A stretch of 61,766 bases of DNA, the filler included. It is 3 parts of 3 records of this genome, joined end to end, with 100 filler letters (N's around TTAATTAATTAA, not from the genome) between each part and the next. Parts side by side here need not be neighbours in the genome. Positions count along the whole stretch, not along the records: positions 21,095 to 38,192 come from DRR723986_3994; 2 more parts are not named here. One strand, given 5' to 3'. Both the position numbers and the translations under genes were made by a program. This document shows, piece by piece, positions 8,317-39,285 of this stretch. Each line of letters starts with the position of its first letter. Positions within the stretch are counted from its first letter, which is position 1. The notes under the pieces are model-generated. The model worked only from the letters and a program-made list of their open reading frames with translations, did not search any database and was not told the origin of the DNA.

Positions 8317-8323
8317 CGGTTCC
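8298..8323 (-). promoter_or_regulatory. EcfG promoter for phyR
   Basis: GGAAC-cgaacgcatcatcgccg(17)-CGTT on minus strand, overlapping the nepR promoter. Confidence 0.85.
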
Positions 8324-8365
8324 GTTGGGTGATGAGTTTTTTCGAAAAAAAGAGACCGAGAAGCA

Positions 8366-20994: not shown

Positions 20995-21094
20995 NNNNNN
21001 NNNNNNNNNNNNNNNNNNNNNNNNNNNNNNNNNNNNNNTTAATTAATTAANNNNNNNNNNNNNNNNNNNNNNNNNNNNNNNNNNNNNNNNNNNN
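20995..21094. other. Artificial contig spacer
   Basis: N44-TTAATTAATTAA-N44, exactly 100 nt, stops in all frames; identical copy at 38193. Confidence 0.97.
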
Positions 21095-21124
21095 GGTGGG
21101 CTTGCACCCACAACGGTTTTCGAG
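21095..21124 (-). repeat. tRNA-Ser(CGA) fragment (anticodon loop to variable arm): distal att copy
   Basis: Reverse complement CTCGAAAACCGTTGTGGGTGCAAGCCCACC; the 5' anticodon stem is not reconstituted beyond 21124, so it is a duplicated 3' half rather than a gene. Confidence 0.85.
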
Positions 21125-21371
21125 TCCAATTCCGAGGGCATCCCCTGATGGGGCAGTCAATTAAATAGGGATTTTGTTATAGCGGAATAGGCAATTTCGG
21201 CGCAGAAAACGGGCAGGGGAGTTATAGAAAAGTGTTATAGTGAGCGGGGAGTTAGGTGCGCCTTTTGAGCACTCGCTCAGGGGGAGGAGTTTTCGTTAAT
21301 GGGCCGGAAGCCAACTATCATTGCATGAAGGATAAAGGGCCGCATTTGGAAAAATCCAAGGTCTTCCAACT

Positions 21372-22265
21372 TTACCCGACTCCCGTCTCCAGAAGCTGAT
21401 CGTTATTCGCAAGAACCCGGCGGAGATGTTCCGATACGATGCGCACGCGTGGCAATTTTGCAGCCTGATCCTGAACCAATAACCAAAGATCAAGCGTAAG
21501 GCTCGCCTCGTCCTCCAGAACCCGCACCAAGCCTGCACGTTTGGCGGCAAAACAGGGCAGAACGGCAACCCCAAGACCTTTTTGCACTGCCTCCAGCTGC
21601 GCATTGAAGGAACTCAACTTTAGGCTTGGGGGGGTACCGGGGCACAGTTCTTCAAGCCAAAGTGCCATCGTCAGAAATCGCAACTCGTCGTTCCAACCGA
21701 TCACCCGAAATTGCTGCAACTCCTCCGCATGCGACGGCATCCCATTGCCTTGCGCAAAGCCCTTTGAACAATAAAGTCCAAACCCCACTTTACCGACGGT
21801 TCTCATCTTGTAGCTTCCGTGCTCAGGGCGCACCAAGCGCAACACGATATCGGATTCCCGCGCGGTCAAGCGAACGGGACGTACGCTTGAACGAATATCA
21901 AGCCTGATGTCGGGGTAATCCGACGCGAGCGTACCGAGACTGGGCAACAGGATGTTCTGGCCAAGAAGTTCGGGCGCATCCAGTCGCACCTCGCCCGAAA
22001 AACCACCTTCCTTTTCCAGCGCCGAACGTTCCAGAACCGCCATCTGTGCAGCGGCGATTTCCGCCGAAGGCAGCAGGTCCTCCCCCGCTTCGGTCAAGTC
22101 ATACCCATCCCTGTGGTGGCGAAACAGTTTCAGGTCCAGCGCTTGCTCAAGGGCCGCGATCCGCCGCGATACCGTAGACGCGCTGACACCCAGCTCACGC
22201 GACGTCGCACTCAGAGATCTTGATCGTGCCACGGCAAGGAAAAATTTCAAATCATTCCAGTCCAT
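21372..22265 (-). CDS. LysR-family regulator
   Basis: MDWNDLKFFLAVARSRSLSATSRELGVSASTVSRRIAALE. Confidence 0.93.
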   Translation of the reverse strand: MDWNDLKFFLAVARSRSLSATSRELGVSASTVSRRIAALEQALDLKLFRHHRDGYDLTEAGEDLLPSAEIAAAQMAVLERSALEKEGGFSGEVRLDAPELLGQNILLPSLGTLASDYPDIRLDIRSSVRPVRLTARESDIVLRLVRPEHGSYKMRTVGKVGFGLYCSKGFAQGNGMPSHAEELQQFRVIGWNDELRFLTMALWLEELCPGTPPSLKLSSFNAQLEAVQKGLGVAVLPCFAAKRAGLVRVLEDEASLTLDLWLLVQDQAAKLPRVRIVSEHLRRVLANNDQLLETGVG

Positions 22266-22287
22266 TTATCTTTCCATTTTCGGAATG

Positions 22288-22302
22288 CAGTTTGCAAAAC
22301 TG
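22288..22302. promoter_or_regulatory. Dyad in divergent LysR/qor promoter, candidate operator
   Basis: CAGTTT-GCA-AAACTG perfect inverted repeat. Confidence 0.4.
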
Positions 22303-22362
22303 TTTCTCGCACGTGCTCAACTTTTCTATACCCTACCATAAAATACCAAGAAGGGTAGCAAC

Positions 22363-23352
22363 ATGACACTCCAATCCACCGCACACATCTTTTCCGAATT
22401 TGGAGACCCATCTGTCTTGAATTGGCAAGATTTAGATCTTTCCGACCCTGCGGCTGGCGAAATACAGATCCGCCATGACGCCATTGGCGTCAACTATATC
22501 GACGTCTACCACCGAAAAGGCGTGTTTGCCGCACCGCTTTCGCTACCCAGCGGCCTTGGCGTTGAGGGGGTCGGCGTCATCACGGCGCTTGGCGATGGCG
22601 TCGAGGGGTTTGCTGTGGGGGATCGCGTTGCGTATGTCGGCGGGCCGCCCAATGGTTATGCCACACACCGCAACCTGCCGGCTGGCCGCGCGCTCGCGGT
22701 TCCCGATGATCTGAACAGCCAAGACGTTGCTGCGTTGATTTTCAAGGGTTTGACTGTTGAATACTTGATCCATCGCTGCGTTGCTGTCGCCAGGGGTGAT
22801 ACTGTATTGTTGCACGCCGCAGCTGGTGGTGTCGGTTCGATTGCCTCTCAATGGCTGAGCCACATCGGTGCCACAGTCATCGGCACGGTAGGTTCGGACG
22901 AAAAGGCTGAGATCGCTAAAGCCAACGGTTGCGATCATGTCATCAACTACGGCGAAGAAGATTTCCAAGCCCGTGTTGCAGAGATCACCGGCGGTAAAGG
23001 GGTCGATGTGGTTTACGATTCCGTGGGTGCCGACACATTTGCCAAATCTCTGGATTGTCTGCGCCCGCGCGGCACCATGGTGAGTTTTGGTGAAGCTTCG
23101 GGCCCGGTAGATTCCTTGGCAGTGGCATCTCTGGGGGGCAAAGGGTCTTTGTTCGTGACCCGCCCGTCGATTGCCCATTACACCGCCGACCGTGGTGAAT
23201 ACGTCGCGGCTGCAGCGAACCTTTTTAGGTCAATGAAATTTGGCGTGATCAAGGCCCCCAATGTAACGACATACGCGCTTTCGGACGCAGTCAAAGCCCA
23301 TGAAGATCTTGAGGCGCGTCGCACATCAGGCTCGGTGGTTCTGTTGCCTTAA
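22363..23352 (+). CDS. qor: NADPH:quinone oxidoreductase (zeta-crystallin/MDR family)
   Basis: AIGVNYIDVYHRKG, VLLHAAAGGVG, GVDVVYDSVG, KGSLFVTRPS. Confidence 0.9.
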   Translation: MTLQSTAHIFSEFGDPSVLNWQDLDLSDPAAGEIQIRHDAIGVNYIDVYHRKGVFAAPLSLPSGLGVEGVGVITALGDGVEGFAVGDRVAYVGGPPNGYATHRNLPAGRALAVPDDLNSQDVAALIFKGLTVEYLIHRCVAVARGDTVLLHAAAGGVGSIASQWLSHIGATVIGTVGSDEKAEIAKANGCDHVINYGEEDFQARVAEITGGKGVDVVYDSVGADTFAKSLDCLRPRGTMVSFGEASGPVDSLAVASLGGKGSLFVTRPSIAHYTADRGEYVAAAANLFRSMKFGVIKAPNVTTYALSDAVKAHEDLEARRTSGSVVLLP

Positions 23353-23460
23353 CCAATGCCACTGCAAGTGAAATCTCTCCGTTGGCCCGTTTGACACGGG
23401 CCCACTTTCCCGTAGGCTTGGCTTCCTGACTGGCCTGCGGTTTTTTTAAAGGAGCGCTCG

Positions 23461-25056
23461 ATGGGCCAAGACATTGGTGAATTTGACTATATCATCGTTG
23501 GTGCCGGAACAGCGGGGTGCTTGCTGGCCAACCGTCTCTCTGAAAAGCCCACCAACCGGGTTCTGCTGATCGAGGCAGGCAAGCGCGATACATACCCGTG
23601 GATCCATGTGCCGGCGGGATATCTTTACTGCATAGGCAATCCGCGCACTGATTGGTGTTTTGAAACTACCCCGATCACCGATTTGAATTACCGCTCGATG
23701 AGCTATGCGCGCGGCAAGGGATTGGGCGGCTGCTCGTCGATCAACGGCATGGTCTATATTCGCGGCCAGTCGCTGGACTATGACGGCTGGGCGCAAATGG
23801 GAAATACCGGCTGGGGCTGGGACGATATTCTGCCGTTGTTTCGCAAACATGAAGATTTTCACGGCGGCTCAGACAGGCTGCATGGGGTTGGCGGTGAAAT
23901 CCCGGTTCAAAAGCAGCGTGTCAATTGGCCAATCCTGAACGCCGTGCGTGATGCGCTGATCGAGCGCGGCGTGCCAAGCATTGATGACTTCAACAGCGGA
24001 GACAACGAAGGCGTCGGCTATTTCCACGTCTCACAACGCAATGGCCTGCGGGTCAGTGCCGCCCGTGCTTTTCTGAACCCAGCCAAAAAACGTCCGAACT
24101 TGCACATTCTGACCGAAGCGCATGTCAAACGTGTGGTGTTTGACGGCCGTCAGGCGACGGGCGTCGAGTTGCATCGGGGCGGCAAGGATCAGATCGTTCC
24201 GGCCCACGCTGAGGTCATTCTGTCCAGTGGTGCCATCGGGTCCCCTCAGCTTTTGGAATTGTCTGGCATCGGACAAGCCGACCGGCTGAACGACCTTGGT
24301 ATTTCTGTGCTGGCGGATCGTCGCGATGTTGGCGAAAATCTACAAGATCACCTGCAAATGCGACCCGTCTTTGCAGTTCAGAATACCAAAACCCTAAATA
24401 CCATGGCCAACAGCCTGTGGGGCAAAGCGATGATCGGCGCCGAATATGCGTTGAAACGGACAGGTCCCCTGTCGATGGCACCCAGCCAATTGGGCGCATT
24501 TATCAAATCCAACCCGTCGATCGCCTCGCCAGATCTGCAATACCATTTCCAACCTCTCTCGCTGGAAAGTTTCGGAGGTGATCTCGACGCATATCCAGCC
24601 ATCACCGCCAGCGTCTGCAACCTGCGCCCTGAAAGCCGGGGCTCGGTCCACGCGGTTTCACCTGATGCGCATCATGCACCTGCCATCAACCCAAACTACC
24701 TGTCCGAGATTGCGGACCGTCAAAAGATGGTCGACGCCATACGACTGACCCGTCACCTGATGCAAGCCAACGCCATGGCGGCATTCGAGCCGAAAGAGGT
24801 GCGCCCCGGCCAGGACTTGACTGAAGGTGAAGATCTTGTGATCGCCGCCATGCAAACTGCGTCTTCCATCTTCCACCCGTGCGGCACCTGCCGGATGGGT
24901 CCGGATGAAGATGCGATTGTCGATCCCGAGCTGCGTGTCCGGGGGATCGAGCGCCTGCGTATTGCCGATGCCTCAATTATGCCCCGCATTACATCGGGCA
25001 ACACCAATGCTCCGACGATGATGATTGCTGAAAAAGCTGCCGCGATGATTGGTTAA
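23461..25056 (+). CDS. GMC-family FAD oxidoreductase (choline/alcohol dehydrogenase-like)
   Basis: DYIIVGAGTAGC, RGKGLGGCSSINGM, GENLQDHLQ, FHPCGTCRMG, SGNTNAPTMMIAEK. Confidence 0.93.
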   Translation: MGQDIGEFDYIIVGAGTAGCLLANRLSEKPTNRVLLIEAGKRDTYPWIHVPAGYLYCIGNPRTDWCFETTPITDLNYRSMSYARGKGLGGCSSINGMVYIRGQSLDYDGWAQMGNTGWGWDDILPLFRKHEDFHGGSDRLHGVGGEIPVQKQRVNWPILNAVRDALIERGVPSIDDFNSGDNEGVGYFHVSQRNGLRVSAARAFLNPAKKRPNLHILTEAHVKRVVFDGRQATGVELHRGGKDQIVPAHAEVILSSGAIGSPQLLELSGIGQADRLNDLGISVLADRRDVGENLQDHLQMRPVFAVQNTKTLNTMANSLWGKAMIGAEYALKRTGPLSMAPSQLGAFIKSNPSIASPDLQYHFQPLSLESFGGDLDAYPAITASVCNLRPESRGSVHAVSPDAHHAPAINPNYLSEIADRQKMVDAIRLTRHLMQANAMAAFEPKEVRPGQDLTEGEDLVIAAMQTASSIFHPCGTCRMGPDEDAIVDPELRVRGIERLRIADASIMPRITSGNTNAPTMMIAEKAAAMIG

Positions 25057-25260
25057 AACGAACCAATGCCGATGTTGTGGATTGATGCCCCGTTTGTCCA
25101 CCATGGGCCGAATTGGGGGCATAGAGGAAAGGCTCGCAGGCCTAAGTAGATTTGTTTGCCAAAATAGAAAAACTATTTTGGCCACTCGGGAAAGAGACCC
25201 ATCTGTTGTTCGAGGGAAAGAGCACCGGATAGGTGCAGCGCATCTCTTGTCAGAGAGTAG

Positions 25261-25318
25261 TGGGGGAGAGACAGGGATTCGACCCCTGGGTCCCCGTGAA
25301 GGGACAACTGTTTTTGAG
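25261..25318 (-). repeat. Degenerate tRNA-Ser 3' half: internal att junction between cassettes A and B
   Basis: Reverse complement CTCAAAAACAGTTGTCCCTTCACGGGGACCCAGGGGTCGAATCCCTGTCTCTCCCCCA, colinear with the fragments at 21095-21124 and 38166-38192. Confidence 0.85.
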
Positions 25319-25680
25319 GCCATATCCAAAAGGTTCACGCCAACAAAATAAGGACTTTCGTACGTACGATTAGGCAATCTCGGCTTAGAAAACGGGTAAG
25401 GGTGTCATAGAAAAGTGTCCTAGCGAAGGGGAGTGCGCCAACTACGCATTCACTCAGACGAGAGGAGATTTTTTGAAAAGGGAGGAAATCGGACTTTCTC
25501 TGCAAACGCGAGGTGGGAATACATCAACAGCGAGATCCGACATTCAAGTACCTATTGGTTATCCAATACTTAGGCCAACTTAGGCGCACAGCGGAGTTTG
25601 TGGAGAAGAGGTTTTGACCAATCCTGTTCCAAATCACCCCATCTCCCAGACTCTCAGCCGACTCCTATGTCAAATCGTTG

Positions 25681-26478
25681 TTAAGAAAAATTTTCCTCCC
25701 CAGTCATTCGTGTCTTTTCGAGCAGAAAATTCCGTACAGTCGGGGTGATGAAGCGATGTTCCATCGGATATATCCCGCATTTTGAAAGCGAATGGCGTGC
25801 CGACTGGGACGCCTCAATCCGTTTCCAAATGGATCTGGACGCATATGGAGACCGACGCGGACGCCAGGCAAGCCCCAGCGTCATGCCCCGCAAATAGGTG
25901 CGTTGCTGACGATGCGCCGGATAGAGAACTGTTTCGGTCAAAGAGCCTTCCTGATCACTTTCGAATTCCAGCACAAAAATGCGCCCCCCCATGTAGCTGG
26001 CCTTGCCGTTGTATCGCGTCCGGTTGATGGGGCCTTGTTCTGGGTTTTGCCCGCGTTCAACAGTTCTGGCCAGAACCTGCCCACGCTGTTCATAGAGTTC
26101 GGTGAATCCGACCATGACAGAGCCCGGCCACGATGGGGTCAAAAAGTGAATATGATAGCTCCCGATGTATTTTCGCAATCGCGTGATGTCACCTGGAAAG
26201 GCATGGGCCAATGGATCTAGGGAGGACCGCGAAGAGTTCTGATCGGGAACACCACGGTGTCCGATAAAGTCGGCCGGGTCCATGAAGAGATGTTGTTCTT
26301 GCAAGCCAAAATGTAGGCAGATTTTTCGCAGGTTATGAGCGGATGGCAGGCCTGCACCATTCAGGTATCGGCTGAATTGCTGCTGATTGATTCCAATCTC
26401 TCGGCAAATCTGCGCAATCGAGACTCTCTCGGCGCAGAGATGTTTCAGATTCTTTGAAAAACTTTCATGATTGGGCAT
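25681..26478 (-). CDS. XRE-family HTH regulator with C-terminal domain of unknown function
   Basis: FSKNLKHLC...SIAQICREIGINQQQFSRYLNG...PSAHNLRKIC; divergent from the cargo operon. Confidence 0.85.
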   Translation of the reverse strand: MPNHESFSKNLKHLCAERVSIAQICREIGINQQQFSRYLNGAGLPSAHNLRKICLHFGLQEQHLFMDPADFIGHRGVPDQNSSRSSLDPLAHAFPGDITRLRKYIGSYHIHFLTPSWPGSVMVGFTELYEQRGQVLARTVERGQNPEQGPINRTRYNGKASYMGGRIFVLEFESDQEGSLTETVLYPAHRQQRTYLRGMTLGLAWRPRRSPYASRSIWKRIEASQSARHSLSKCGIYPMEHRFITPTVRNFLLEKTRMTGEENFS

Positions 26479-26576
26479 CAAGCGTTATCACTTCTTCACA
26501 TAATTGCTAATAGTAGCTAAAGAAATACAATACTCGCTAACTTGTTTTTGGCAAGGGCCTTGGTCAGGAATACCCC

Positions 26577-28562
26577 ATGACTGACCAAATCGAGATTATT
26601 GAGAACACATGGATTCCCCTCGCGGATGGGAGGCGGCTGGCTGCCCGCCTTTGGATACCAAAGGGCGATGGCCCGTTTCCAGCCATTCTGGAGTATCTGC
26701 CCTACCGAAAGCGTGACGGTACCGCGCCAAGGGATGAAACGACGCACCCCGAATTTGCGCGGGCTGGGTATGTCTGCCTCCGGGTGGATATAGCGGGAAC
26801 AGGTGACAGCGACGGCCTGTTTGACGATGAATATTCTGAACAGGAACTAAGCGACGGCGAAGGCGTGCTTAGTTGGATTGCCGATCAGCGATGGAGCGAT
26901 GGCAATGTCGGCATGATTGGAATTTCATGGGGTGGCTTCAACGGGCTGCAGCTGGCTTACCGTCGGCCAAAGGCGTTGAAAACGGTCGTCAGCGTTGCCT
27001 CGACCGTGGATCGATATGCTGATGACATCCACTACATGGGCGGCTGTCTGCTAAGCGATAACGTCAATTGGGCAAGCCAGATGTTTGCCTATCAGACCCG
27101 ACCGGCTGACCCTCAGTTGCGCCCGGACTGGCGTGAGGAGTGGATCGACAAGCTCAACAACACACCTTTCCTGGCTGCCGATTGGCTGGCAAATCCCACC
27201 CGCGGCGCCTATTGGAAGCATGGGTCAGTTTGCGAAGACTGGTCTGCCATCGAAGTGCCGGTTCTGGCGATTACCGGTTGGGCAGATGCTTACGTCAACG
27301 CCCCAACCGCTTTGGTTGCCAATCTGCAGTCCCCGTCCAAGGCGATGATTGGCCCGTGGGAACATCGATATGCGCATATTTCCAAGCTGGCCCCGGCGGA
27401 TTTCCATTCCGAAGTGATCGGATGGTTCGATCGTTGGTTGAAGGGGGAACAAAACGGCGCCGAAGACCTGCCCGACTATCGCACGTTCATGCAAGAGCAT
27501 TTTCCGCCAACTGCGCATAACTCCCCGCGCAAAGGCCGTTGGATTGCCGAGCAAGATTGGCCCTCATCAAACATTTCAGTTAAGCACATGAATCTGGGCG
27601 ATGGCGGATTGCTGGATACGCATCAAACAGGGCAAGTCAGAATTTCAACTCCGGCGCATGTTGGTCAGGCCAGTGGCTATTTCTGCCCGGGTATGCGCAA
27701 CGACAACGAATTAGCCGGCGATCAGAAAGATGATGATGCGCTGTCTGTCTGCTTTGATACGCCCCCCGTGCAAGCGCCTTTGGAAATACTGGGGCGCGCC
27801 GTGTTGGAATTCACCTTCACTGTTGACCGCCCTGTGGCGCAACTTGTGGCCCGCCTTTGCGACGTTGCGCCGAATGGGCAGTCTTTCCGGATCAGCTATC
27901 GATCGCTGAACCTGTGTGCCTTTGAGAGCTTTGAAAATCCTGAGGCTCTTGTGCCGGGAAAAACGTATACAGCGCGGATTGAACTGAACGAATGTGCGCA
28001 TCATTTGCGGCAGGGTCACAGGCTTCGGCTGGCTCTATCCAATAGCTATTGGCCAATTGTATGGCCCGCGCCAGAACAGACAGCCGTCACTTTGGATGTT
28101 TCCAATTCTGTGCTGAAGCTCCCTGTGAGGCAGGTCGAAACGGAGATCGAACCAGCCAACCCCGGCCCTGTACAGGACTTTCCGCAACTGGAGGTTCAGA
28201 CGCTCCGGGCCGCGTCCAGCGCATCCGAACGTGTCACCCAAGAGGATGGTGTTGTGGTGCTCGAGGCATATGACGATTTTGGGAAGAACCGTGATCCGTA
28301 TCACGGCCTAACCGTCGGCAGCGATGTTGCGATGCGCTTTTCAATTCATCCTGACAATCCGGCCACGGCAAGTTTCTGGGAGAAGTGGACCTTCACCTTT
28401 GAGCGCGGCGATTGGCAGGTCGCAATCGACACGGAAAACACCATGACCTGCGACACCGACAATTTCTATTTGCATCGCAAACTGCACGCCACTGAAGGTG
28501 CTGACAAAACCGAAGTTCTGACCCGGGAATGGTCGACCACCATCCCGCGCGGGCTTCTTTGA
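26577..28562 (+). CDS. CocE/NonD-family serine hydrolase (peptidase S15)
   Basis: AILEYLPYRKRD, nucleophile elbow GISWGG, GWADAY, IGPWEH, RLRLALSNSYWP. Confidence 0.93.
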   Translation: MTDQIEIIENTWIPLADGRRLAARLWIPKGDGPFPAILEYLPYRKRDGTAPRDETTHPEFARAGYVCLRVDIAGTGDSDGLFDDEYSEQELSDGEGVLSWIADQRWSDGNVGMIGISWGGFNGLQLAYRRPKALKTVVSVASTVDRYADDIHYMGGCLLSDNVNWASQMFAYQTRPADPQLRPDWREEWIDKLNNTPFLAADWLANPTRGAYWKHGSVCEDWSAIEVPVLAITGWADAYVNAPTALVANLQSPSKAMIGPWEHRYAHISKLAPADFHSEVIGWFDRWLKGEQNGAEDLPDYRTFMQEHFPPTAHNSPRKGRWIAEQDWPSSNISVKHMNLGDGGLLDTHQTGQVRISTPAHVGQASGYFCPGMRNDNELAGDQKDDDALSVCFDTPPVQAPLEILGRAVLEFTFTVDRPVAQLVARLCDVAPNGQSFRISYRSLNLCAFESFENPEALVPGKTYTARIELNECAHHLRQGHRLRLALSNSYWPIVWPAPEQTAVTLDVSNSVLKLPVRQVETEIEPANPGPVQDFPQLEVQTLRAASSASERVTQEDGVVVLEAYDDFGKNRDPYHGLTVGSDVAMRFSIHPDNPATASFWEKWTFTFERGDWQVAIDTENTMTCDTDNFYLHRKLHATEGADKTEVLTREWSTTIPRGLL

Positions 28563-28583
28563 ACTGATCCAAGGGAGGACATC

Positions 28584-30146: not shown

Positions 30147-30161
30147 TCTCCTCTCAGGCGC

Positions 30162-30193
30162 GGTGTGACCATCTGAAGTCAGGTGGTCACACC
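30162..30193 (+). other. Long hairpin after binding-protein gene (mRNA stabiliser/attenuator)
   Basis: GGTGTGACCATCTG-AAGT-CAGGTGGTCACACC, 14-bp stem with one G-U pair. Confidence 0.65.
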
Positions 30194-30224
30194 ACATAGA
30201 CGATCAAACTAAAGGTGCCTGCAC

Positions 30225-31163
30225 ATGCTGTTTTACACCCTCAAACGATTTGCGCTTGCGGCGTTGATTTTGGTCGTGGCGGTCACCGTCATGTTCCTGA
30301 TGATCCGCGCCGTTCCGGGCAATCCCGTCGAGATTATGCTTGGCCCACGCGCCACGCCTGAATTGCAGGCCAAACTGACAGCGGAACTGGCGTTGGACCA
30401 ACCGATGTGGCGGCAACTGGCCTTGTTTTATAGCGGGTTACTGCGAGGCGACCTTGGGGCTGACGTTTTCTCGGGGCGGGCCGTTACCGATATCGTCTTT
30501 GAACAGTTGCCCTACACGCTGCATCTGATTTTCCTGTCAATCGGCTGGTCTGCCATCTTGGGCGTTGCGATTGGCGCTTATGCTGCGGCGCACCCCAACA
30601 CTCTGGCCGACCGGATCGTGGCAACCTTATCGGTCAGCTTCGTGGCGGCCCCTGCTTTTGTTGTCGCCTTGTTGTCGTTGTTACTGTTCGCAGTTTATCT
30701 ACGTTGGTTTCCCGCAATTGGTGCAGGCGAAGGATTTTGGGATGTGCTGTACCATCTGATACTGCCCGCTTTTGCCATGGGGCTGTCTTGGGTCGGTTAT
30801 ATTTCACGGCTGGTGCGGGCCTCGATGCTGGAAGTTCTGGGCGAAAGTCACATTCGAACGGCGCGCGCTTTTGGCCTAAGCGAGCGCCGCATTATCGGAG
30901 CTTATGCCCTGCGTATCGCAATCTTGCCGGTTGTCACGGTGATTGGTGTCGGCATGGGATTCCTGCTGAGTGGAGCCGTGTTCACCGAGATCGTTTTTGC
31001 CCGTCCCGGCCTTGGTAAGCTGGTGATCGACAGCATCACCACACGCAACTACCCGATCGTGATGGGTGCGGTGCTGGTTTCAACCGGGTTGTTCGTGGTC
31101 TCGACGGCGCTGGCCGACATCATCAATGCCATTCTTGATCCGCGCGCGCGGACAGAAAGCTGA
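30225..31163 (+). CDS. Peptide ABC permease (DppB/OppB-like)
   Basis: LRGDLG, HLILPAFAMG, HIRTARAFGLSE, EIVFARPGLG. Confidence 0.93.
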   Translation: MLFYTLKRFALAALILVVAVTVMFLMIRAVPGNPVEIMLGPRATPELQAKLTAELALDQPMWRQLALFYSGLLRGDLGADVFSGRAVTDIVFEQLPYTLHLIFLSIGWSAILGVAIGAYAAAHPNTLADRIVATLSVSFVAAPAFVVALLSLLLFAVYLRWFPAIGAGEGFWDVLYHLILPAFAMGLSWVGYISRLVRASMLEVLGESHIRTARAFGLSERRIIGAYALRIAILPVVTVIGVGMGFLLSGAVFTEIVFARPGLGKLVIDSITTRNYPIVMGAVLVSTGLFVVSTALADIINAILDPRARTES

Positions 31164-31174
31164 GGGAGGAGAGT

Positions 31175-32053
31175 ATGACAGATATCACTTCGAATACCCC
31201 GAAACCGCGTTCCGAGTTGATGAACATCCTTTTGGGTGTAGCGCGGGAACCGCTGGGCCTGATGGGGCTCATTATTGTTGGTGCCATTGTTCTGGCGGCG
31301 GTGTTCGCGCCCTGGATTGTGCCCTACGACCCGATCGCCATGAATATTCCGGATCGGATGCAGGGTCCCTCGTGGGCGCACTGGTTGGGAACCGACCTGC
31401 TGGGCCGCGATACATTTTCCCGCGTTGTTATGGGCGGACGTGTTGCGCTGAAAGTGGCTCTGCCGGCCGTGTTTGGGGCGATGGCGATTGGACTGACCTT
31501 GGGCATGATTGCCGGATACGGGCCAAAATGGCTCGACAACTTGCTGATGTTGTTCTTTGATACGATCCGCTCTTTCCCGACCGTGATGTTTGCGCTGGCG
31601 GTTGTGGCTCTTGTGGGGCCAAGCCTGCAAACCGTTGTGGTTGTTGTCATGGCGACCTCGATCCCGACCTATGGGCGTGTGGCGCGCACCCAAACTCTCA
31701 CACTGCGCAATTCCGAGTTTATTTTGGCCGAACGTGCCATGGGTGCCTCGATGGCGCGTATTCTGGGGGTACACATGCTGCCCAATATTATCGGTGTTCT
31801 GGCGGTTCTGGCCGCGATGGATATTCCGACAGTGATCGCACTTGAAGCGGGGCTTTCCTTTCTGGGTCTTGGGGTGAAGCCACCGACGCCAAGTTGGGGC
31901 GCGCTTTTGAAAGACGGCTATGCGCTGATCCGCCAAACGCCGTGGTTGGTCGTTGGTGGTGGCCTACCAATCATTCTGGCAACCCTTGGATTTACCTTTT
32001 TAGGTGAAAGCCTGCGCGATGTGGTTGACCCCAAACTGAGGAAACAGCGATGA
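31175..32053 (+). CDS. Peptide ABC permease (DppC/OppC-like)
   Basis: HWLGTDLLGRD, EAGLSFLGLG, PTPSWG, GESLRDVVDPK. Confidence 0.93.
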   Translation: MTDITSNTPKPRSELMNILLGVAREPLGLMGLIIVGAIVLAAVFAPWIVPYDPIAMNIPDRMQGPSWAHWLGTDLLGRDTFSRVVMGGRVALKVALPAVFGAMAIGLTLGMIAGYGPKWLDNLLMLFFDTIRSFPTVMFALAVVALVGPSLQTVVVVVMATSIPTYGRVARTQTLTLRNSEFILAERAMGASMARILGVHMLPNIIGVLAVLAAMDIPTVIALEAGLSFLGLGVKPPTPSWGALLKDGYALIRQTPWLVVGGGLPIILATLGFTFLGESLRDVVDPKLRKQR

Positions 32054-33027
32054 GCGACCTTCTTTTGGAAATCGATGGCCTGAGTGTCGACTATGAAACC
32101 TCGCGCGGAGATCTCAAGGCACTACGTGACATCAGCTTTGATGTGCGCAAGGGCGAGATTGTCGGCATCGTTGGTGAAAGCGGATGTGGCAAATCCACCC
32201 TGATTTCGTCGATCTTGCGATTGATTGCCCCCAACACCCGGTTCCGCGCCGGTGAGGTCCGGTTTAAAGGCGACGATCTGCTGTCTCTGCCCGAAAAGAG
32301 GATGCGCGATTTGCGCGGGTCGGACATATCCATCGTGTTTCAAGACCCGATGCAGACCCACAACCCGGTGATCTCGATCGGGCAGCAGATGGTGGATATC
32401 CAGCACCGCGCAAAGGCCTCGAAACGGGAGAAGCTGTCGCGGGCCGCTAAGATGTTGGGCGCTGTCGGCATTCCGGATCCCGAGGCCCGCCTGCAGCAGT
32501 TCCCGCATGAGTTTTCCGGCGGGATGCGACAGCGGATTGCCATTGCCATGGCCTTGATGAGCGAACCGGACCTGTTGATCGCCGACGAGCCGACCACTGC
32601 GCTGGACGCCACGCTGGAAGTGCAGATCATCGAGCGCCTGCAGGATCTGCAAAAAGACCTTGGCTGTTCGATCCTGTTCATCTCTCACCATTTGGGCGTG
32701 ATCGCTGAGCTTTGTGATCGGGTTGTGGTGATGTATGCCGGGGCTGTCGTTGAAAGCGGTGACGTGCGAGAGATTTTCCACCACCCAAAACATCCCTACA
32801 CCCGCCGCCTAATCGAATGTGATCCCGGTCACATCAAGACCCGTGCCCGCGTTCTGCCAACCATTCCCGGTGAAGTGCCGGATCTGGCAAACTTGCCCTC
32901 CGGCTGCATTTTCCGGGACCGCTGCGAACAGGCAACGGATCGCTGTGCACAGGTGCCAGAACTCAGAAAACTCAAAGAGGGTCACTTTGCGGCCTGTTGG
33001 CTGAACCAAGAGGAGGTCCCCGCATGA
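32050..33027 (+). CDS. Peptide ABC ATP-binding protein (DppD-like)
   Basis: GESGCGKST, FSGGMRQR, IADEPTTALD, HPYT, GCIFRDRC. Confidence 0.94.
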   Translation: MSDLLLEIDGLSVDYETSRGDLKALRDISFDVRKGEIVGIVGESGCGKSTLISSILRLIAPNTRFRAGEVRFKGDDLLSLPEKRMRDLRGSDISIVFQDPMQTHNPVISIGQQMVDIQHRAKASKREKLSRAAKMLGAVGIPDPEARLQQFPHEFSGGMRQRIAIAMALMSEPDLLIADEPTTALDATLEVQIIERLQDLQKDLGCSILFISHHLGVIAELCDRVVVMYAGAVVESGDVREIFHHPKHPYTRRLIECDPGHIKTRARVLPTIPGEVPDLANLPSGCIFRDRCEQATDRCAQVPELRKLKEGHFAACWLNQEEVPA

Positions 33028-33965
33028 GCCCGATCCTTGAGGTCAAAGACCTGAAAACCAACTATGGCCCGGTCAATGTATTGGCTGGCGTCAGTTTCAG
33101 CGTAGAGGCGGGCCAGACCTATGCAATGGTTGGTGAAAGCGGCTCTGGCAAGACAACCGTGATCCGGGCTATTGCCGGGTTGGCACCTGCTCAATCCGGT
33201 TCCGTGAAATTCATGGGGCAGGAAATCCGAGGCATTTCAGAGCGGGCTTTTCGTCCTTTGCGCAAGGACATCGCAATGATGTTTCAAGACCCGGTCGGGT
33301 CGCTGTCACCACGTCTGACCATTCGCAATCTGATCACGGAACCTTACCGCATCCAAGGCATGAAAGATCGAGATATGGATGCCGAGGCCAAACGGCTGCT
33401 GGAGCTGGTCAACCTGCCATCGCACTTTGCGGATCGCTATCCTTATCAGCTGTCCGGAGGTCAGGCACGACGTATCGGGGTGGCGCGGGCACTGGCCCTG
33501 GAGCCGAAGCTGATCCTTGCGGATGAACCCACCGCCGGCTTGGATGTATCAGTACAGGGCGAATTACTGAACTTGCTTAACGACCTACGCGAACGGCTTG
33601 GTCTTTCGATGGTGATTATCACCCACAACCTGAATGTGGTGCGCCACGTGGCCGACCGGATGGGCATTCTTTATCTCGGTCGTCTGGTCGAGGAAGGCCC
33701 CTCCGAAACGGTCTTCGCCGATCCGCGCCATCCCTACACCCACTGCCTGCTCTCGGCCAACCCCGAACCCGACCCCGACGCCCGCCTGGACCGCATCGCG
33801 CTCAAAGGCGAACCTCCCAGCCTGATCAGCCGCCCAAAGGGATGCGAATTCAGAGAACGATGCCCAATGGCATCCGACGTATGCACACAAGTCCCCCAGT
33901 GGGAGGTCGAAAACGGACACGGCATTCGCTGCCTGACTCCGCGCCTCGTTGGAAATGTCGCATGA
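33024..33965 (+). CDS. Peptide ABC ATP-binding protein (DppF-like)
   Basis: GESGSGKTT, LSGGQARR, ADEPTAGLDVSVQ; ATGA overlap. Confidence 0.94.
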   Translation: MSPILEVKDLKTNYGPVNVLAGVSFSVEAGQTYAMVGESGSGKTTVIRAIAGLAPAQSGSVKFMGQEIRGISERAFRPLRKDIAMMFQDPVGSLSPRLTIRNLITEPYRIQGMKDRDMDAEAKRLLELVNLPSHFADRYPYQLSGGQARRIGVARALALEPKLILADEPTAGLDVSVQGELLNLLNDLRERLGLSMVIITHNLNVVRHVADRMGILYLGRLVEEGPSETVFADPRHPYTHCLLSANPEPDPDARLDRIALKGEPPSLISRPKGCEFRERCPMASDVCTQVPQWEVENGHGIRCLTPRLVGNVA

Positions 33966-34750
33966 AGCGGTTCACCGGGAAAACGGTGCTGGTGACTGGC
34001 GGCGCTTCCGGAATCGGGCTGGCGATTGCGCGCAGGTTCGCCGAGGAAGGGGCCGCGCTGATCCTGATTGGGCGTGATGATGAAAAAGGCAAGGCTGCGG
34101 TTGCCTCTATCAGCGAAACGGGCACGGTCTGCCAGTTCTTCTCCGTCGATCTGTCGCAGGAGCGCGCGGTGAAAGAGGTCGTGTCCAGCATCGCCACTTT
34201 GGATATTCTGGTGAACAACGCGGGGCTTGGCTCCGCACGGATAGATATCACACCTGATGATGGCCCGGGCCAGCGATGGGACCGTTTGCGCGGTGCGAAC
34301 CTTGATTCGACCTACCTTATGACCGCCTATTGCCTGCCTCTGCTGCAAGCAACTGGCGGGAGCGTCATCAATATCTCATCCACGGCGACAATGCATGGCA
34401 ATTGGGGTCTATATGGGGTCGCAAAAGCCGGAGTCGAGGCTATGACACGTTCTTTTGCCGCCGAGTCTGCGCCGATCCGTGTGAACGCAGTCAGTCCCGG
34501 TTGGATAGTGACCAAAGCCACCTCGGGCGCGTCAGGTGACGCAAAAGAGGGTTGGGATCAACCGCCTTCGATGTTGGCCCGTATGGGGACAGGAGCCGAG
34601 ATCGCAGGAGCGGTCACCTTTCTGGCCTCACCAGATGCATCATTCATCACCGGACAGACCTTGATCGTTGATGGCGGCATGTCCGTCACTGATTACCCCT
34701 CGCGGCCAATGCTGGCCAAGCGCGGCAGCAAACTGTTTTCCCAAGGATAA
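33962..34750 (+). CDS. Classical SDR oxidoreductase
   Basis: TGGASGIG, LVNNAG, YGVAK, RVNAVSPG, FITGQTLIVDGG; ATGA overlap. Confidence 0.93.
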   Translation: MKRFTGKTVLVTGGASGIGLAIARRFAEEGAALILIGRDDEKGKAAVASISETGTVCQFFSVDLSQERAVKEVVSSIATLDILVNNAGLGSARIDITPDDGPGQRWDRLRGANLDSTYLMTAYCLPLLQATGGSVINISSTATMHGNWGLYGVAKAGVEAMTRSFAAESAPIRVNAVSPGWIVTKATSGASGDAKEGWDQPPSMLARMGTGAEIAGAVTFLASPDASFITGQTLIVDGGMSVTDYPSRPMLAKRGSKLFSQG

Positions 34751-34755
34751 GCTGG

Positions 34756-36402
34756 ATGATCCAAACTCTTTATTTCAACGGCAACATTCTGACTATGGAT
34801 GATCAGAATTCGGTTGCTGAGGCTGTGCTGACACAGGACGAGACCATCGTATCTTCCGGTCGAGAAGCTGACCTGCGCGCCATGCTCGCCGAAGACGCGA
34901 TTCAGGTCGATCTGCAAGGCAAAACCATGATGCCAGCGTTCATTGATCCACATGGGCACTTCCCCGATCCCGGGTTTATCCGCCTGTTCCGGGTCGATCT
35001 GGCCTCGGCCCCGCGTGGGGATTGCCCGGACATGGCCACTGCACTGGATCGATTGCGCGCCAAGGCCGACGAGACTGCGGCTGGTGAATGGGTGATGGGG
35101 GTACTGTTCGATAATACGGCAATCGCTGAAAAACGTATGCCAACGCGGGAAGAACTGGATTCCGTATCAACGGATCATCCGATTTGGGTGATCCACGCGT
35201 CTGGACATAACGGCGCAGCCAACTCGATGGCGCTCTTGCGCCACAGGGTAAATCGAGACACGCCTGACCCTTTGGGGGGACGATTTGGCCGCGACCCTGA
35301 GACCGGAGCGCTGACTGGGCTGATCGAAGGCATTTCAGCCATGGGAGAAATGGGTGACACAATTTTCCTGATCGACCATGAGCGTTTCTGGCAGGGATTT
35401 GATGCAACCCGCGAAGAATACCTGGGCCACGGGGTCACATATGCCCAAAACGCCTGGGCGGCCCGCGATATGCTGGCGCATTTTAACTCCCTTCCTGTGG
35501 ATGTAGATCCGGGAATTGATCTGCAAATTCTACCTGTTGGAGAATTGGAACCAGAGCTTAGCCAGGGCCCGGATGCGCTGGAGTGGTCAGGGAATCCCCA
35601 CTTCACGCTGGGGCCGCGCAAGCTGTTCACGGATGGGGCGTTTCAACTGCAGACGGCTTTTCTGTCAAAGCCGTACCTTAAGCCCGTCAATCCGGATGCC
35701 CCTTGCGGGATGACCTATGCCGATCCTGCCGAGCACCATGCGCAGGTGAAAAAGCTGCATGACATGGAATTTCAAATCCACTGTCACTGCAACGGCGATG
35801 CTGGGTTGGATCTATTTCTGGACGCAGTGGATGCGGCCCAGAACGCCAATCCACGCGCCGATCACCGGCACACCGTCATTCATGGGCAGGTCACCCGCGA
35901 TGACCAGTTGGAACGCATGGCGCGTTTGGGGGTAACTGTCAGCTTTTTCTCGGCCCATATCCATTTCTGGGGAGATCGCCACTATGACACGTTCCTTGGC
36001 CCCGAGCGGGCGAATCAAATTTCTCCCGCTGCATCAGCGGAGCGATATGGGGTGCGCTACACGATCCACAATGATGCGTCGGTGACCCCCACGCGGCCCA
36101 TTCATTTGGCCCATTGCGCGGTCAACCGGCTGACTGCCTCGGGGCGCCTATTGGGTGAGGATCAGAAGGTCTCGGTAATGTCTGCCTTGCGCGCGCAAAC
36201 GATTGATGCCGCATGGCAGGTGTTTGAGGAGAGCCGTCGCGGTTCTATCGAGGCCGGGAAACTGGCTGATTTTGCCGTGCTATCACGCAGCCCGATGAAC
36301 GCGCCGGAGCGTTTGTTTGAAACACAAGTGGTTCAAACAATTCGCCGTGGCCAGCTGGTTTTCCAATCTCCCGAGATTGCAGATCAGAAAGACAGAAAAT
36401 GA
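34756..36402 (+). CDS. Amidohydrolase_3 (YtcJ-like) metal-dependent amidase
   Basis: PAFIDPHGH, KLFTDG, HCNGD, RHTVIHGQ, GSIEAGKLADF. Confidence 0.9.
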   Translation: MIQTLYFNGNILTMDDQNSVAEAVLTQDETIVSSGREADLRAMLAEDAIQVDLQGKTMMPAFIDPHGHFPDPGFIRLFRVDLASAPRGDCPDMATALDRLRAKADETAAGEWVMGVLFDNTAIAEKRMPTREELDSVSTDHPIWVIHASGHNGAANSMALLRHRVNRDTPDPLGGRFGRDPETGALTGLIEGISAMGEMGDTIFLIDHERFWQGFDATREEYLGHGVTYAQNAWAARDMLAHFNSLPVDVDPGIDLQILPVGELEPELSQGPDALEWSGNPHFTLGPRKLFTDGAFQLQTAFLSKPYLKPVNPDAPCGMTYADPAEHHAQVKKLHDMEFQIHCHCNGDAGLDLFLDAVDAAQNANPRADHRHTVIHGQVTRDDQLERMARLGVTVSFFSAHIHFWGDRHYDTFLGPERANQISPAASAERYGVRYTIHNDASVTPTRPIHLAHCAVNRLTASGRLLGEDQKVSVMSALRAQTIDAAWQVFEESRRGSIEAGKLADFAVLSRSPMNAPERLFETQVVQTIRRGQLVFQSPEIADQKDRK

Positions 36403-37904
36403 TGCACCCCAAGATTGCTATTGCAGGCTTTCAACATGAAACCAATACGTTCAATCCGAACCTCACCCCGGTGTCCGAGTTTGAACGCGCCGATGGATGG
36501 CCCCCCGCAACCCGTGGTCAGGACATTCTGGACGTGTTTGCCGATCTGAATATCGCAATTGGCGGCTTTATTCAGGACGGGCAGGATTTTGAACTTTGCC
36601 CAATCCTGTGGTGTGCCGCCGAACCCGCCGGGCTGGTCAGCGCAGAGGCCTTTGAGAAATACTGCGCGGAAATCTGTGAGGGGTTGAAAGAGCACGCGCC
36701 GCTGGATGGCGTGCTGCTGGATTTGCACGGGGCAATGGTTGCAGAGGGCTATTTTGACGGCGAACTTGAAATCCTGCGCCGCGTGCGCGCCGTGGTGGGG
36801 GACATTCCTGTCGTGGTGGCGCTCGACTTTCACGCAAACATCTCTCCGGCTTTTGTCGAACTTTGCGATGCGATTACGATCTATCGTGAATATCCGCACC
36901 TGGACATGAGACAGACGGGCGTACGGGCGGTGCGCCTAATGCGCCAGCGCCTCGCCCATGGCAAACCCTTCCCAAGGGCGTTTTTGCAGGTGCCTTACCT
37001 CGTTCCGCTTTCGGATCAGGCAACCGGCCAAGGGCCTTTTGCCGACATATTTACTGGGTTTGATGACCTGCCAGTGCCCGGTCTCATCAGCGCAGATGCG
37101 GCAGCCGGTTTCCCGGCCGCAGACATACCCAATTGCGGACCCTCCGTTTTGGCCTATTGTACCGATGAAACAGCGGCTCAACGAGCGACGGAAATCCTCC
37201 TTGATCGCTTTATCGCAGCCGAACGCGATTTGACCAACGGCTTGCTGTCAGAAAATCAGGCGATCCGAAAGGGCGCTGAAATGCTGCGGACCTCTGTACG
37301 CCCTGTGGTGCTGGCTGACGTCCAAGACAATCCCGGTGCAGGCGGTAGCAGCGATACCACAGGACTATTGCACGCCCTAATCGAGCAGGATCTTGCACCA
37401 GCTGTCATGGGTATTTTCGCAGATCCAGACTGCATTCAAAAAGCAAATTTAGTTGGGGATGGAAATCACTTTGTCCATGTGATTGGTCAAAACACCCCAA
37501 TTCCTGGGCTGAAACGGCGGAAGGTAACTTTCGAGGTAGTAAGTTTGTCAGAGGGTCCAATCGTCTGCACAGGCGAAATGTACAAGGGAATTGCCGTAGA
37601 CATTGGATGTACAGCATTGCTGAAGATTGTGGGGACTTCTCATGAGATATGTGTGGTTGTCTCTGAGCAACGGTTTCAGTGTCTTGATCGGGCGTTGCTT
37701 GAGCACTTTGGTTTGGATTTGAGCGAACCACGCCTTATAGTTGTAAAAAGCACAGCTCATTTTCGCGCGGATTTCGATCCGATTGCACGGGCCACGCTTT
37801 TGGTTGAATCACCTGGTCTTCACCCATGCCGTTTGGAGCAGGTACCCTATGAGAACCTACGTGAGAATTTGCGTTTGATCGAAGGAATCCTAAAACGCGA
37901 ATGA
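36399..37904 (+). CDS. M81-family (MlrC-like) metallopeptidase
   Basis: AGFQHETNTF, LDLHGAMV, DFHAN, YPHLD, DNPGAG, VVKSTAHFRADF. Confidence 0.92.
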   Translation: MMHPKIAIAGFQHETNTFNPNLTPVSEFERADGWPPATRGQDILDVFADLNIAIGGFIQDGQDFELCPILWCAAEPAGLVSAEAFEKYCAEICEGLKEHAPLDGVLLDLHGAMVAEGYFDGELEILRRVRAVVGDIPVVVALDFHANISPAFVELCDAITIYREYPHLDMRQTGVRAVRLMRQRLAHGKPFPRAFLQVPYLVPLSDQATGQGPFADIFTGFDDLPVPGLISADAAAGFPAADIPNCGPSVLAYCTDETAAQRATEILLDRFIAAERDLTNGLLSENQAIRKGAEMLRTSVRPVVLADVQDNPGAGGSSDTTGLLHALIEQDLAPAVMGIFADPDCIQKANLVGDGNHFVHVIGQNTPIPGLKRRKVTFEVVSLSEGPIVCTGEMYKGIAVDIGCTALLKIVGTSHEICVVVSEQRFQCLDRALLEHFGLDLSEPRLIVVKSTAHFRADFDPIARATLLVESPGLHPCRLEQVPYENLRENLRLIEGILKRE

Positions 37905-38165
37905 CTTGCATAGACGCGACGATGTTTTGCGGAATTACTGCGTAGTGCTTGAACGGCGGCTTTCAGGAAACCAATAGGTGGTTTCTGGAAGTGGCCGAAT
38001 GGGTTCTTTGGGTAGGGGGCTCGGAACAAGCAGACTTTTTGCCAAAAGTAAAAAAACTATTTTGATGTACCTGAAAACAGACCCATCTGATGTTCAACAG
38101 ATAGAGCGCCGACAGTGATTGGTGTTTCGCATCGCTGGTCAGAACTTGTGCTGATCGCAGGATAG

Positions 38166-38192
38166 TGGCGGAGAGACAGGGATTCGAACCCT
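38166..38192 (-). tRNA. 3' end of tRNA-Ser (T arm, acceptor stem, GCCA), truncated by contig end; may be the real gene or a further att copy
   Basis: Reverse complement AGGGTTCGAATCCCTGTCTCTCCGCCA. Confidence 0.7.
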
Positions 38193-38292
38193 NNNNNNNN
38201 NNNNNNNNNNNNNNNNNNNNNNNNNNNNNNNNNNNNTTAATTAATTAANNNNNNNNNNNNNNNNNNNNNNNNNNNNNNNNNNNNNNNNNNNN
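38193..38292. other. Artificial contig spacer
   Basis: N44-TTAATTAATTAA-N44. Confidence 0.97.
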
Positions 38293-38484
38293 CGTCACAC
38301 CCGCCGACGTCTACTTCGGCCGCGATAAAGCCATTCTAAAACAACGTGAAAGGATCAAGCAAAAGACACTCCAAACGCGACGCTTGCATCACAGACTGCA
38401 CGCCGCATAATCAAACCAAACAGATGAGCAAAACTCTCTCTTAGTTTAGGACGCCATTGGTTCCAAAAACCCTGACGACGGACA
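38293..38484 (+). mobile_element. Right end of an IS3-like element (transposase C-terminus plus terminal repeat)
   Basis: VTPADVYFGRDKAILKQRERIKQKTLQTRRLHHRLHAA* (stop 38410); ends CCTGACGACGGACA; sits at a contig break. Confidence 0.7.
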
Positions 38485-39020: not shown

Positions 39021-39285
39021 TTTCGCCATTAGGGTAATCCGTTGTCATTCGCTGAAGAGAGATTGGTTTTGGTCAAGCAAAACTTTTATCCCAGAGGCAA
39101 AGGCATCCCATGGTCGACAGGGTTTTATGTTCATTGGCCTAAGCATGCTACCAGCACGACGCGACTATCATCAACGTGTCGTTTGCTATGGGACTTGAGA
39201 AAATATGACAGCAAACGTGTTGTTTGATCAGTGCTGCGCCTGCAGGTAGTGCAAAAAAAATAGGGTTCACAACGGGGGACAAGGA

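Follow-up and report, generated by a model that had tools for sequence, protein, structure and literature searches.

The stretch of DNA analysed here (the window, 61,766 nucleotides) is made up of three contigs joined through 100-nt linkers (N44-TTAATTAATTAA-N44), and the other contigs in it are not necessarily neighbours, in the cell, of the one considered here. Positions 21095-38192 correspond to exactly one draft contig, with a linker at each side, from a marine Rhodobacteraceae bacterium. This contig contains two head-to-tail units of 4.1 kb (unit 1) and 12.8 kb (unit 2) with a diverged 3' part of a tRNA-Ser(CGA) gene in between, and in each unit the cargo genes lie between a left and a right arm that adjoin tRNA-derived attachment (att) copies (Table 1). 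It is suggested here that the two units are probably islands without an integrase of their own, which were inserted by an integrase encoded elsewhere and were stacked one after the other at the tRNA gene.

Table 1. Features of the tandem array and of its boundaries, in window positions
Feature	Position	Strand	Remarks
Contig linker, non-biological	20995..21094	.	N44-TTAATTAATTAA-N44
Distal att copy	21095..21124	-	tRNA-Ser(CGA) anticodon loop and variable arm, cut by contig end; 30/30 vs complete tRNA of G317
Unit 1 left arm	21125..21371	-	Conserved core ~21158-21304; three CTATAAC copies; 77.9% vs G317 left arm over 149 nt
Unit 1: LysR-family regulator	21372..22265	-	Pfam HTH_1, LysR_substrate
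Unit 1: Zn-dependent dehydrogenase or quinone oxidoreductase	22363..23352	+	Pfam ADH_N, ADH_zinc_N
Unit 1: GMC-family flavin adenine dinucleotide (FAD) oxidoreductase	23461..25056	+	Pfam GMC_oxred_N, GMC_oxred_C
Unit 1 right arm	25057..25257	-	CAGATGGGT, CAAAATAG, TTCGGCC at +56, +81, +149 from tRNA end; 76% vs G317 right arm over 130 nt
Arm-att-arm junction module, 467 nt	25119..25585	.	Absent in the ~98%-identical X7 strain (X7 record 27)
Internal att copy	25258..25318	-	Diverged non-functional tRNA-Ser 3' part, different variable-arm type; 80% vs canonical tRNA, 93% vs G135 tRNA-Ser
Unit 2 left arm	25319..25680	-	Conserved ~25319-25520; 72.5% vs G317 left arm over 182 nt
Unit 2: XRE-type helix-turn-helix regulator	25681..26481	-	Pfam HTH_26, HTH_31
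Unit 2: S15 (X-Pro dipeptidyl) peptidase	26577..28562	+	Pfam
Unit 2: five-gene Dpp/Opp-type ABC transporter	28584..33965	+	Pfam; binding protein, two permeases, two ATPases
Unit 2: short-chain dehydrogenase (SDR)	33842..34750	+	Pfam; true start probably later than 33842
Unit 2: amidohydrolase_3	34756..36402	+	Pfam
Unit 2: MlrC/M81 metallopeptidase	36399..37904	+	Pfam; 80% identical protein in Aliisedimentitalea scapharcae
Unit 2 right arm	37905..38165	-	CAGATGGGT, CAAAATAG, TTCGGCC at +77, +102, +167
Proximal att copy	38166..38192	-	tRNA-Ser T-arm and acceptor 3' end, cut by contig end; 27/27 vs complete tRNA
Contig linker	38193..38292	.	Same type (44 N, TTAATTAATTAA, 44 N)

Attachment copies and integrity of the contig

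The original prediction described three copies of the tRNA-Ser 3' half on the minus strand. All three are present, but the outer two proved to belong to a single repeat that is truncated at either end of the contig. The two fragments complete each other apart from one base that is in neither (metagenome contigs run from 38192 through this base to 21095), and since the two contig ends thus lie side by side in the repeat, it appears that the assemblers were unable to cross it. The proximal copy at the right-hand end could be the real tRNA gene or one more repeat. ARAGORN reported no tRNA gene in the whole window. An Rfam scan gave only two below-threshold matches, both to RF04351 (plastid 3' untranslated region RNA), at 25264-25315 and 38169-38192; they lie on the strand opposite to the tRNA-Ser pieces and were discarded as spurious antisense-tRNA resemblance.

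The layout is also present in metagenomes, where at least part of the stretch was found in 19 runs from 11 studies. In the four of these runs that were aligned in detail, contigs approximately 98.5-99% identical to ours span both units, and the inter-unit junction is bridged by X3 record 10 (23352-25635) and by X1 record 2 (22201-25351). As the bridging contigs come from independent metagenome runs, the tandem layout is no assembly artefact, and related strains sampled from coral, seawater and sediment have it too. In run X1 there is in addition a contig (depth 21) in which the tRNA piece 21095-21124 is joined to a unit-2-like left-arm core (25394-25424) and then to different DNA. This may represent a further element of the family, possibly one that follows in the same organism where our contig stops.

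The adjacency of the two contig ends within one repeat would also agree with a free 17-kb circle closing through the tRNA segment, or with a mis-join, and contigs of runs X1 and X7 do read across from 38192 through one base to 21095. We consider either of these exceedingly improbable. The joint has a depth of 46 in X1 and of 596 in X7, against approximately 5-18 in most bins of the units, which suggests that it derives from many organisms, and we rejected it as evidence of a circular molecule because it is plain intact tRNA-Ser sequence of many bacteria. There is moreover no replication gene in the units, independent runs bear out the internal layout, and a related cassette in the genome G317, described below, is integrated with chromosomal flanks.

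Structure of the arms

Homology of the left arms with each other, and of the right arms with each other, had been predicted and was upheld by significant alignments. A repeat search within the window aligned the left arms over 91 nt at 74% and the right arms over 84 nt at 73%, and in local alignments 55 of 67 positions were identical for the left arms (z = 23) and 86 of 110 for the right arms (z = 25.7; 500 mononucleotide shuffles in each case). MAFFT was also used to align both pairs. When the third member of the family, the G317 cassette, is included, the right arms of the three integrase-less units are 76-78% identical and the left arms 72-78%. Three blocks recur in all three right arms, namely CAGATGGGT, then CAAAATAG 25 nt on and TTCGGCC a further 65-68 nt on. 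The CTATAAC copies of the unit 1 left arm are variants of a CTATGAC repeat found in the wider family. The arms have a G+C content of 47-50%, compared with 56% in the cargo, and a scan of the junction region gave no promoter-like site and one terminator-like site, which is the variable arm of the tRNA.

Between the window and the metagenome strains, approximately 5% of positions differ in the left arm of unit 1 (21129-21356), compared with well under 1% in the adjacent LysR gene; in X1 record 1, at least 11 of 15 differences fall inside 217 nt of this arm. At four of five core positions checked the base in the window is not the family consensus. Since the metagenome alleles do agree with the consensus at these positions (21180, 21196, 21220 and 21236), the unit 1 left arm of the window appears to carry derived bases.

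Cargo genes

A Pfam scan was made of all 13 large open reading frames (ORFs) of the two units. The Pfam content of unit 1 differs throughout from that of unit 2, in agreement with the proposal that their cargo is unrelated. The units had also been described as devoid of integrase, transposase, replication, relaxase and phage genes, and this too was borne out: none of the 13 ORFs matched such a family, and an integrase from the islands of the same tRNA gene described below (type A) gave a best E value of 1.4 by tblastn against the window. Conjugation or mobilisation genes were not found among the 13 ORFs by Pfam either, and the gaps between the ORFs are too small for more genes.

The unit 2 operon (25656-37864) is approximately 80% identical and syntenic in Aliisedimentitalea scapharcae, where there are no arms. 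In that genome the operon homologue ends approximately 500 nt from a tRNA-Glu(TTC) gene (L003, 11987-12061). A search of a plasmid collection returned 59 matching records; in every case the match was through ABC-transporter paralogues and extended over no more than 22% of the query, and none was at the arms.

A third integrase-less cassette and its empty sites

A third integrase-less member of the family was found on contig G317:C40, as a 2.7-kb one-gene cassette with both arms at tRNA-Ser(CGA). Here a complete tRNA-Ser(CGA) is followed by a 179-nt right arm, 2353 nt of cargo, a 179-nt left arm and the repeat, which comprises the last 62 nt of the tRNA and 8 further bases and so forms an exact 70-bp direct repeat. 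The cargo consists of a single gene for a flavin oxidoreductase of 675 aa (Oxidored_FMN and Pyr_redox_2), and no integrase of the type-A kind is present in the cassette. In three of the 13 relatives searched (G406, G410 and G407) the site is empty, and the sequences that flank the cassette in G317 adjoin there with a 69-nt overlap. The exact repeat together with the empty sites indicates that the G317 cassette is a clean site-specific insertion. With this third cargo, its 70-bp repeats and its empty sites, the predicted family of integrase-less elements of the form att-arm-cargo-arm with exchanged cargo is substantiated.

The cargo segment of G317 has a 96% identical copy in G425, without arms or tRNA. 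It is from these armless relatives of the cargo, in Aliisedimentitalea scapharcae and G425, that we conclude that ordinary chromosomal operons got between the conserved arms, and did so later than the divergence of the arms themselves. The G425 copy (L076, G425:C1:346001-362000, reverse-complement 6970-9323) begins exactly at the TTCGGCC block, with which the right arm ends, and so keeps approximately 10-30 nt of arm-derived sequence, and its neighbourhood is not syntenic in G317.

Distribution of the arms

With the internal junction as query, 336 of 401 family genomes gave a match, nearly all on the tRNA part only. Matches to the arms came from two genomes, namely G099 and G317 (scoring was limited to two candidates per genome, and arms may be missed). 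The right arm alone recovered only G317 from the same 401 genomes, plus five matches of 19-29 nt (E 0.007-0.01) which were taken as chance. When the right-arm region of G317 was searched against 151 relatives of G317, only G317 itself and G425 were found, and the G425 match lies on the cargo side. Exact patterns were also scanned against species-representative genomes. The first left-arm pattern gave two matches, in Bacteroidales metagenome-assembled genomes, and these were dismissed as chance; a looser left-arm pattern gave two real stretches (L048 and L049), and of the three stretches given by the right-arm pattern only L049 was real. In the Joint Genome Institute (JGI) metagenome collection the right-arm pattern matched five stretches, none with wider arm similarity.

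Over these 401 family genomes, 151 relatives of G317 and exact-pattern scans of two collections, the known integrase-less family amounts to three units in two genomes, and no integrase-bearing element with the right arm was found. The search with both arms that was originally suggested, for relatives at tRNA-Ser(CGA) with variable cargo, added G317 with its third cargo. A literature search, which did not include the name or motifs of the arms as search terms, found nothing describing this arm family.

Integrase-bearing islands at the same tRNA gene

Islands with a tyrosine integrase, which we term type A, occur at tRNA-Ser(CGA) and share the core and the left arm with the integrase-less units, but not the right arm. 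Homologues of the type-A integrase were found in eight of the 401 family genomes, at nine loci, seven of which adjoin a complete tRNA-Ser(CGA) with the integrase gene convergent to it, while one more is cut by a contig end. The island in G099 is 20 kb long and encodes a tyrosine integrase of 365 aa, 240 nt past the tRNA and convergent with it. Its cargo is defence-like (C5 methylase, HATPase_c_3, HNH, SNF2 helicase and Fic), and at its far end there is a left arm, 90% identical to that of G317 and approximately 80% identical to those in the window, followed by the 3' part of the tRNA. An island of approximately 23 kb in G409 has an integrase 86.6% identical to this and a left arm 86.7% identical to that of G317 over 181 nt, and the same left end is found on L048, an uncultured Rhodobacteraceae contig.

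Two type-A islands lie in tandem, 48 kb apart, in G015 (G015:C1, L056 ~3551046 and L062 ~3599394). At the second locus an N-terminally truncated integrase (residues 136-365) is found beside a tRNA 3' part and the left-arm core, and there is no third att copy within 60 kb beyond it. G015 is thus a tandem array with decay, and tandem accretion does occur in the type-A family. The tRNA-Ser(CGA) gene is also a hotspot in the clade of G317, with different DNA in G409, G403, G405 and G408. In G403 the 3.4 kb at the tRNA include an integrase shortened at its N terminus (residues 85-364) and a distal repeat. In G405 (L088, G405:C1:2021501-2024800) only the palindrome of the type-A spacer (the sequence between tRNA and integrase gene) is left in approximately 2.2 kb, and in G408 (L089, G408:C56:231201-234900) approximately 2.7 kb of unrecognised DNA lies directly past the tRNA; neither has a detectable distal repeat.

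All 11 tRNA-integrase spacers examined contain the palindrome, at approximately +74 to +100. Its form is GTGTCATA/CTATGAC in eight of them, the remaining three having a GGCATA-type variant, and CTATGCC-type sites occur in all 11 at approximately +113 to +147. CTATGAC-like copies are found in the left arms of both type-A and integrase-less elements, the shared left arm of approximately 180 nt having two such repeats. These repeats are putative arm sites of the type-A integrase. A decamer, CTATGCCCCC, is common to type-A spacers and the right arm of unit 1 only, and was judged too weak for homology.

It had been proposed that an integrase be looked for beside the tRNA gene or in a sister element with the same arms. 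Type A answers to this in part, as it lies at the same tRNA gene and shares the core and left arm, but it is without the right arm and no such integrase was found in G317. To judge from their direct repeats, from the empty sites and from boundaries that agree with those of the integrase islands, the integrase-less units entered by tyrosine-integrase recombination across a core of 60-70 bp. It could be argued instead that circles containing a 60-70-bp tRNA-Ser segment were integrated through a single homologous crossover by RecA, with no integrase involved, as a repeat of this length (an exact 70 bp in G317) would suffice for homologous recombination and G317 has no helper integrase that we could find. 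This appears to us very improbable, given that the repeat extends from the anticodon stem-loop to a few bases past the 3' end, boundaries which match those of the integrase-bearing islands, and that the left arm and its repeated motif, which homologous recombination does not need, are conserved across both element types.

A related strain without the internal junction

In run X7 a strain approximately 98% identical to ours lacks the junction module between the units. A contig of 642 nt (X7 record 27) joins 25006-25118 to 25586-26114, with a microhomology of 3 nt where they meet, and what is missing comprises part of the unit 1 right arm, the internal att copy and part of the unit 2 left arm. 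The depth in the junction bin is correspondingly low in this run (1.39, with flanks of 18.7 and 6.2). This deletion fuses the two islands and joins their cargos in the X7 strain.

The position of the joint bears on a more ambitious view of the family, in which arm-core-arm is a functional unit with recognition factors of its own and cargo is swapped at defined inner boundaries, much as in an integron. The arm/cargo breakpoint falls at TTCGGCC twice, at the X7 joint (25118|25586) and at the start of the G317-G425 homology (L043:15122); CAGATGGGT, CAAAATAG and TTCGGCC are kept at fixed spacing in all three right arms, and the cargo differs in all three units. The coincidence of breakpoints nevertheless amounts to two cases, and those on the left side do not coincide. 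There are only three units in two genomes and no array of more than two units, and neither an associated recombinase nor a common promoter nor any structure like attI or attC was found. We therefore hold a dedicated cassette platform of this kind to be quite improbable. A related proposal, that there is a self-perpetuating integrase-less lineage of operon cassettes with an arm-core-arm module of approximately 430-470 nt as the functional entity, a right arm (CAGATGGGT, CAAAATAG, TTCGGCC) read by some factor and cargo exchange at TTCGGCC, seems to us doubtful. If it were true, tRNA-Ser(CGA) in marine Rhodobacteraceae would be a place where whole catabolic operons are collected as cassettes.

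Proposed origin and mechanism

We think it probable, though far from assured, that the two units are non-autonomous islands resembling cis-mobilizable elements (CIMEs), which were integrated by an integrase of the type-A family (acting in cis or in trans) and came to be stacked through accretion. Each would have entered tRNA-Ser(CGA) by site-specific recombination over a core of approximately 60-70 bp, spanning the anticodon loop to just past the 3' end of the tRNA, and the units would have piled up through successive integrations. The recombinase would have come from elsewhere, the likeliest source being type A, with which the units have the tRNA, the core and the left arm of approximately 180 nt in common.

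It is possible to envisage two routes by which such an integrase may have acted. The route in cis, which we judge the most economical, would begin with an array of tRNA, type-A island and integrase-less unit. Here the outer pair of arms would be the type-A spacer and the type-A-like left arm of the unit, a pair that the integrase could use, and the composite could be excised, transferred and integrated. If the type-A part was later excised alone, the integrase-less unit would stay behind between direct repeats, as in G317, and repetition of these events could have led to the two-unit array of the window. In the alternative route the integrase would be supplied in trans to a free circle; mobilisation in trans, as originally predicted, is thus one of two conceivable modes of action. 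Cargo may change when units accrete and then undergo an internal deletion like that of the X7 variant.

The three integrase-less units occupy three separate att-bounded positions in two hosts and carry unrelated cargo. Taken with their shared arms, and with an internal att copy that is of the G135-like tRNA variant, this indicates that the units arrived separately and did not arise by local duplication. All three are devoid of integrase, spacer and scar, whereas the decayed type-A islands (G403, G405 and G015) keep remnants. From the shared arms, the three att-bounded positions, the foreign tRNA type of the junction copy and the missing integrase scar, the simplest history would be that an integrase-less ancestor spread and swapped its cargo, rather than that three separate decays each left no scar. 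The alternative raised with the original prediction, that relatives always carry an integrase whose loss leaves a detectable scar, was found to apply in part: those sharing the left arm do have integrases, and these do decay in place, but there is no scar in the three integrase-less units.

A number of observations weigh against the helper scheme proposed here. In G317 the type-A integrase was not found, the best match being 26% identical, and the cassette is thus without a helper at present. The right arm could not be aligned with the type-A spacers, and the CTATGAC motif is absent from it in two of the three integrase-less units; it is possible that the type-A integrase does not recognise the right side. 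The unit 1 left arm, from the differences described above, looks to be evolving recently without evident constraint. Neither a type-A island adjoining an integrase-less unit nor a circular form was seen, and the family is tiny, so that all arguments from conservation rest on three sequences.

Several of these points would also fit with decay in place, whereby each unit lost its own integrase after integration, the right arm was the tRNA-proximal arm of one integrase-bearing lineage, and the units never moved without an integrase. Decay of the integrase is common at this hotspot (G403, G405 and G015), the unit 1 left arm is drifting from the family consensus, and G317 has no helper integrase. 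We regard this history as possible but unlikely, since it needs three independent losses, each complete and scar-free, that left the same right arm of approximately 180 nt abutting the cargo. The absence of any element combining the right arm with an integrase in the collections searched also argues against it, as does the compactness of the G317 cassette, in which arms of 179 nt surround one gene within an exact 70-bp repeat. On balance we prefer integration of integrase-less islands by a type-A-family enzyme.

Relationship to known systems

The term 'cis-mobilizable element' is reportedly used in the ICEberg 2.0 paper. Like CIMEs, the units sit at a tRNA gene's 3' end between attL and attR (the outer copies of the array being cut by the contig ends, while G317 has the exact repeat), have no genes for integration or excision and none for conjugation or mobilisation, stand in tandem with related elements, and evolve by accretion and deletion. 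In relation to a helper, they share the core and left arm with type A, but not the right arm. CIMEs derive by decay from integrative and conjugative elements (ICEs) or integrative and mobilizable elements (IMEs). No remnant of a mobility gene is found in the units, and since the arms are the same around three cargos, a common ancestor already without integrase is indicated and not three separate decays. The units differ from CIMEs in sharing a second arm of their own, and look like a separate lineage. Their host is alphaproteobacterial (Rhodobacteraceae) and their cargo consists of metabolic operons, in contrast to the CIMEs of Streptococcus. The one type-A island that was annotated is of defence type, with no conjugation genes detected.

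The CIME is defined in section 2.3 of a review (PMC5704250), which deals with tandem accretion of ICESt1/ICESt3-type elements in Streptococcus and cites Pavlovic 2004 and Bellanger 2011. In the model given there an element integrates, decays to a CIME and is joined through accretion by another element, and CIME-ICE tandems are transferred. In the terms of that section, the loss of the junction in X7 corresponds to the deletion half of the accretion-and-deletion model. The suggestion that the array might be of an undescribed kind does not survive comparison with it, as CIMEs and tandem accretion are already to be found there (PMC5704250). The array is a fresh example of the described stacking of foreign DNA at a tRNA gene, and no new category is called for.

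Genomic islands that target tRNA genes by a tyrosine integrase have been mapped with Islander (PMC4383910). The units resemble Islander islands in that a displaced 3' fragment of the tRNA marks the ends and the crossover region begins at the anticodon loop and reaches the 3' end. Among the type-A relatives, G099, G409, G015 and others are standard tRNA tyrosine-integrase islands of this sort, but the units of the window and the G317 cassette have no tyrosine integrase of their own. The tycheposons of Prochlorococcus are cargo elements at tRNA genes which, according to the preprint, have their own tyrosine recombinase and often replication genes (bioRxiv 10.1101/2020.12.28.424599). On that description the two have in common a marine host, stacking at a tRNA gene, partial tRNA copies as separators, the displacement of older elements inward by newer ones and degenerate remnants. 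They differ in that our units have both arms yet no mobility gene whatever, the recombinase and the replication or packaging module of tycheposons being absent by Pfam, and there is no sequence relation to what is described there.

The array was originally likened in function to an integron. An integron has an intI gene with an adjacent attI site, a common promoter, and cassettes with imperfect inverted repeats of the attC type. There is a likeness to integron cassettes in so far as recombinase-less units, independent of a promoter, would be stacked at one site by an integrase encoded elsewhere. However, every defining feature of the integron that was looked for is missing: there is no integrase in the window and no promoter-like site in the junction region, and the units end in tRNA-derived cores with two different arms and not in attC. 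They carry whole regulated operons, their attachment site is a tRNA gene, and arrays are of two units only, so that the comparison had to be abandoned.

Units of this type are missed by island finders that are seeded on integrases, though complete regulated operons for catabolism and transport are aboard. In the Rhodobacteraceae a compact set is now available, consisting of a 2.7-kb cassette with empty sites, a two-unit array, a strain in which the units are fused, and a candidate helper family with a repeated motif, and this set lends itself to deciding between spread in cis and spread in trans for islands that have no integrase. The case also shows how accretion and deletion turn mobile DNA into ordinary-looking chromosome.

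The right-hand contig

The right-hand contig of the window has a G+C content of 48%, compared with 56-57% in the other two. By eye, its start (38294-38410) resembles the C-terminal end of a transposase, a fragment of 38 residues that matched no Pfam family, and this is followed by an ORF for an IS200-type Y1 transposase (38683-39198). A transposase-like start followed by a Y1 ORF agrees with contigs breaking at repeats.

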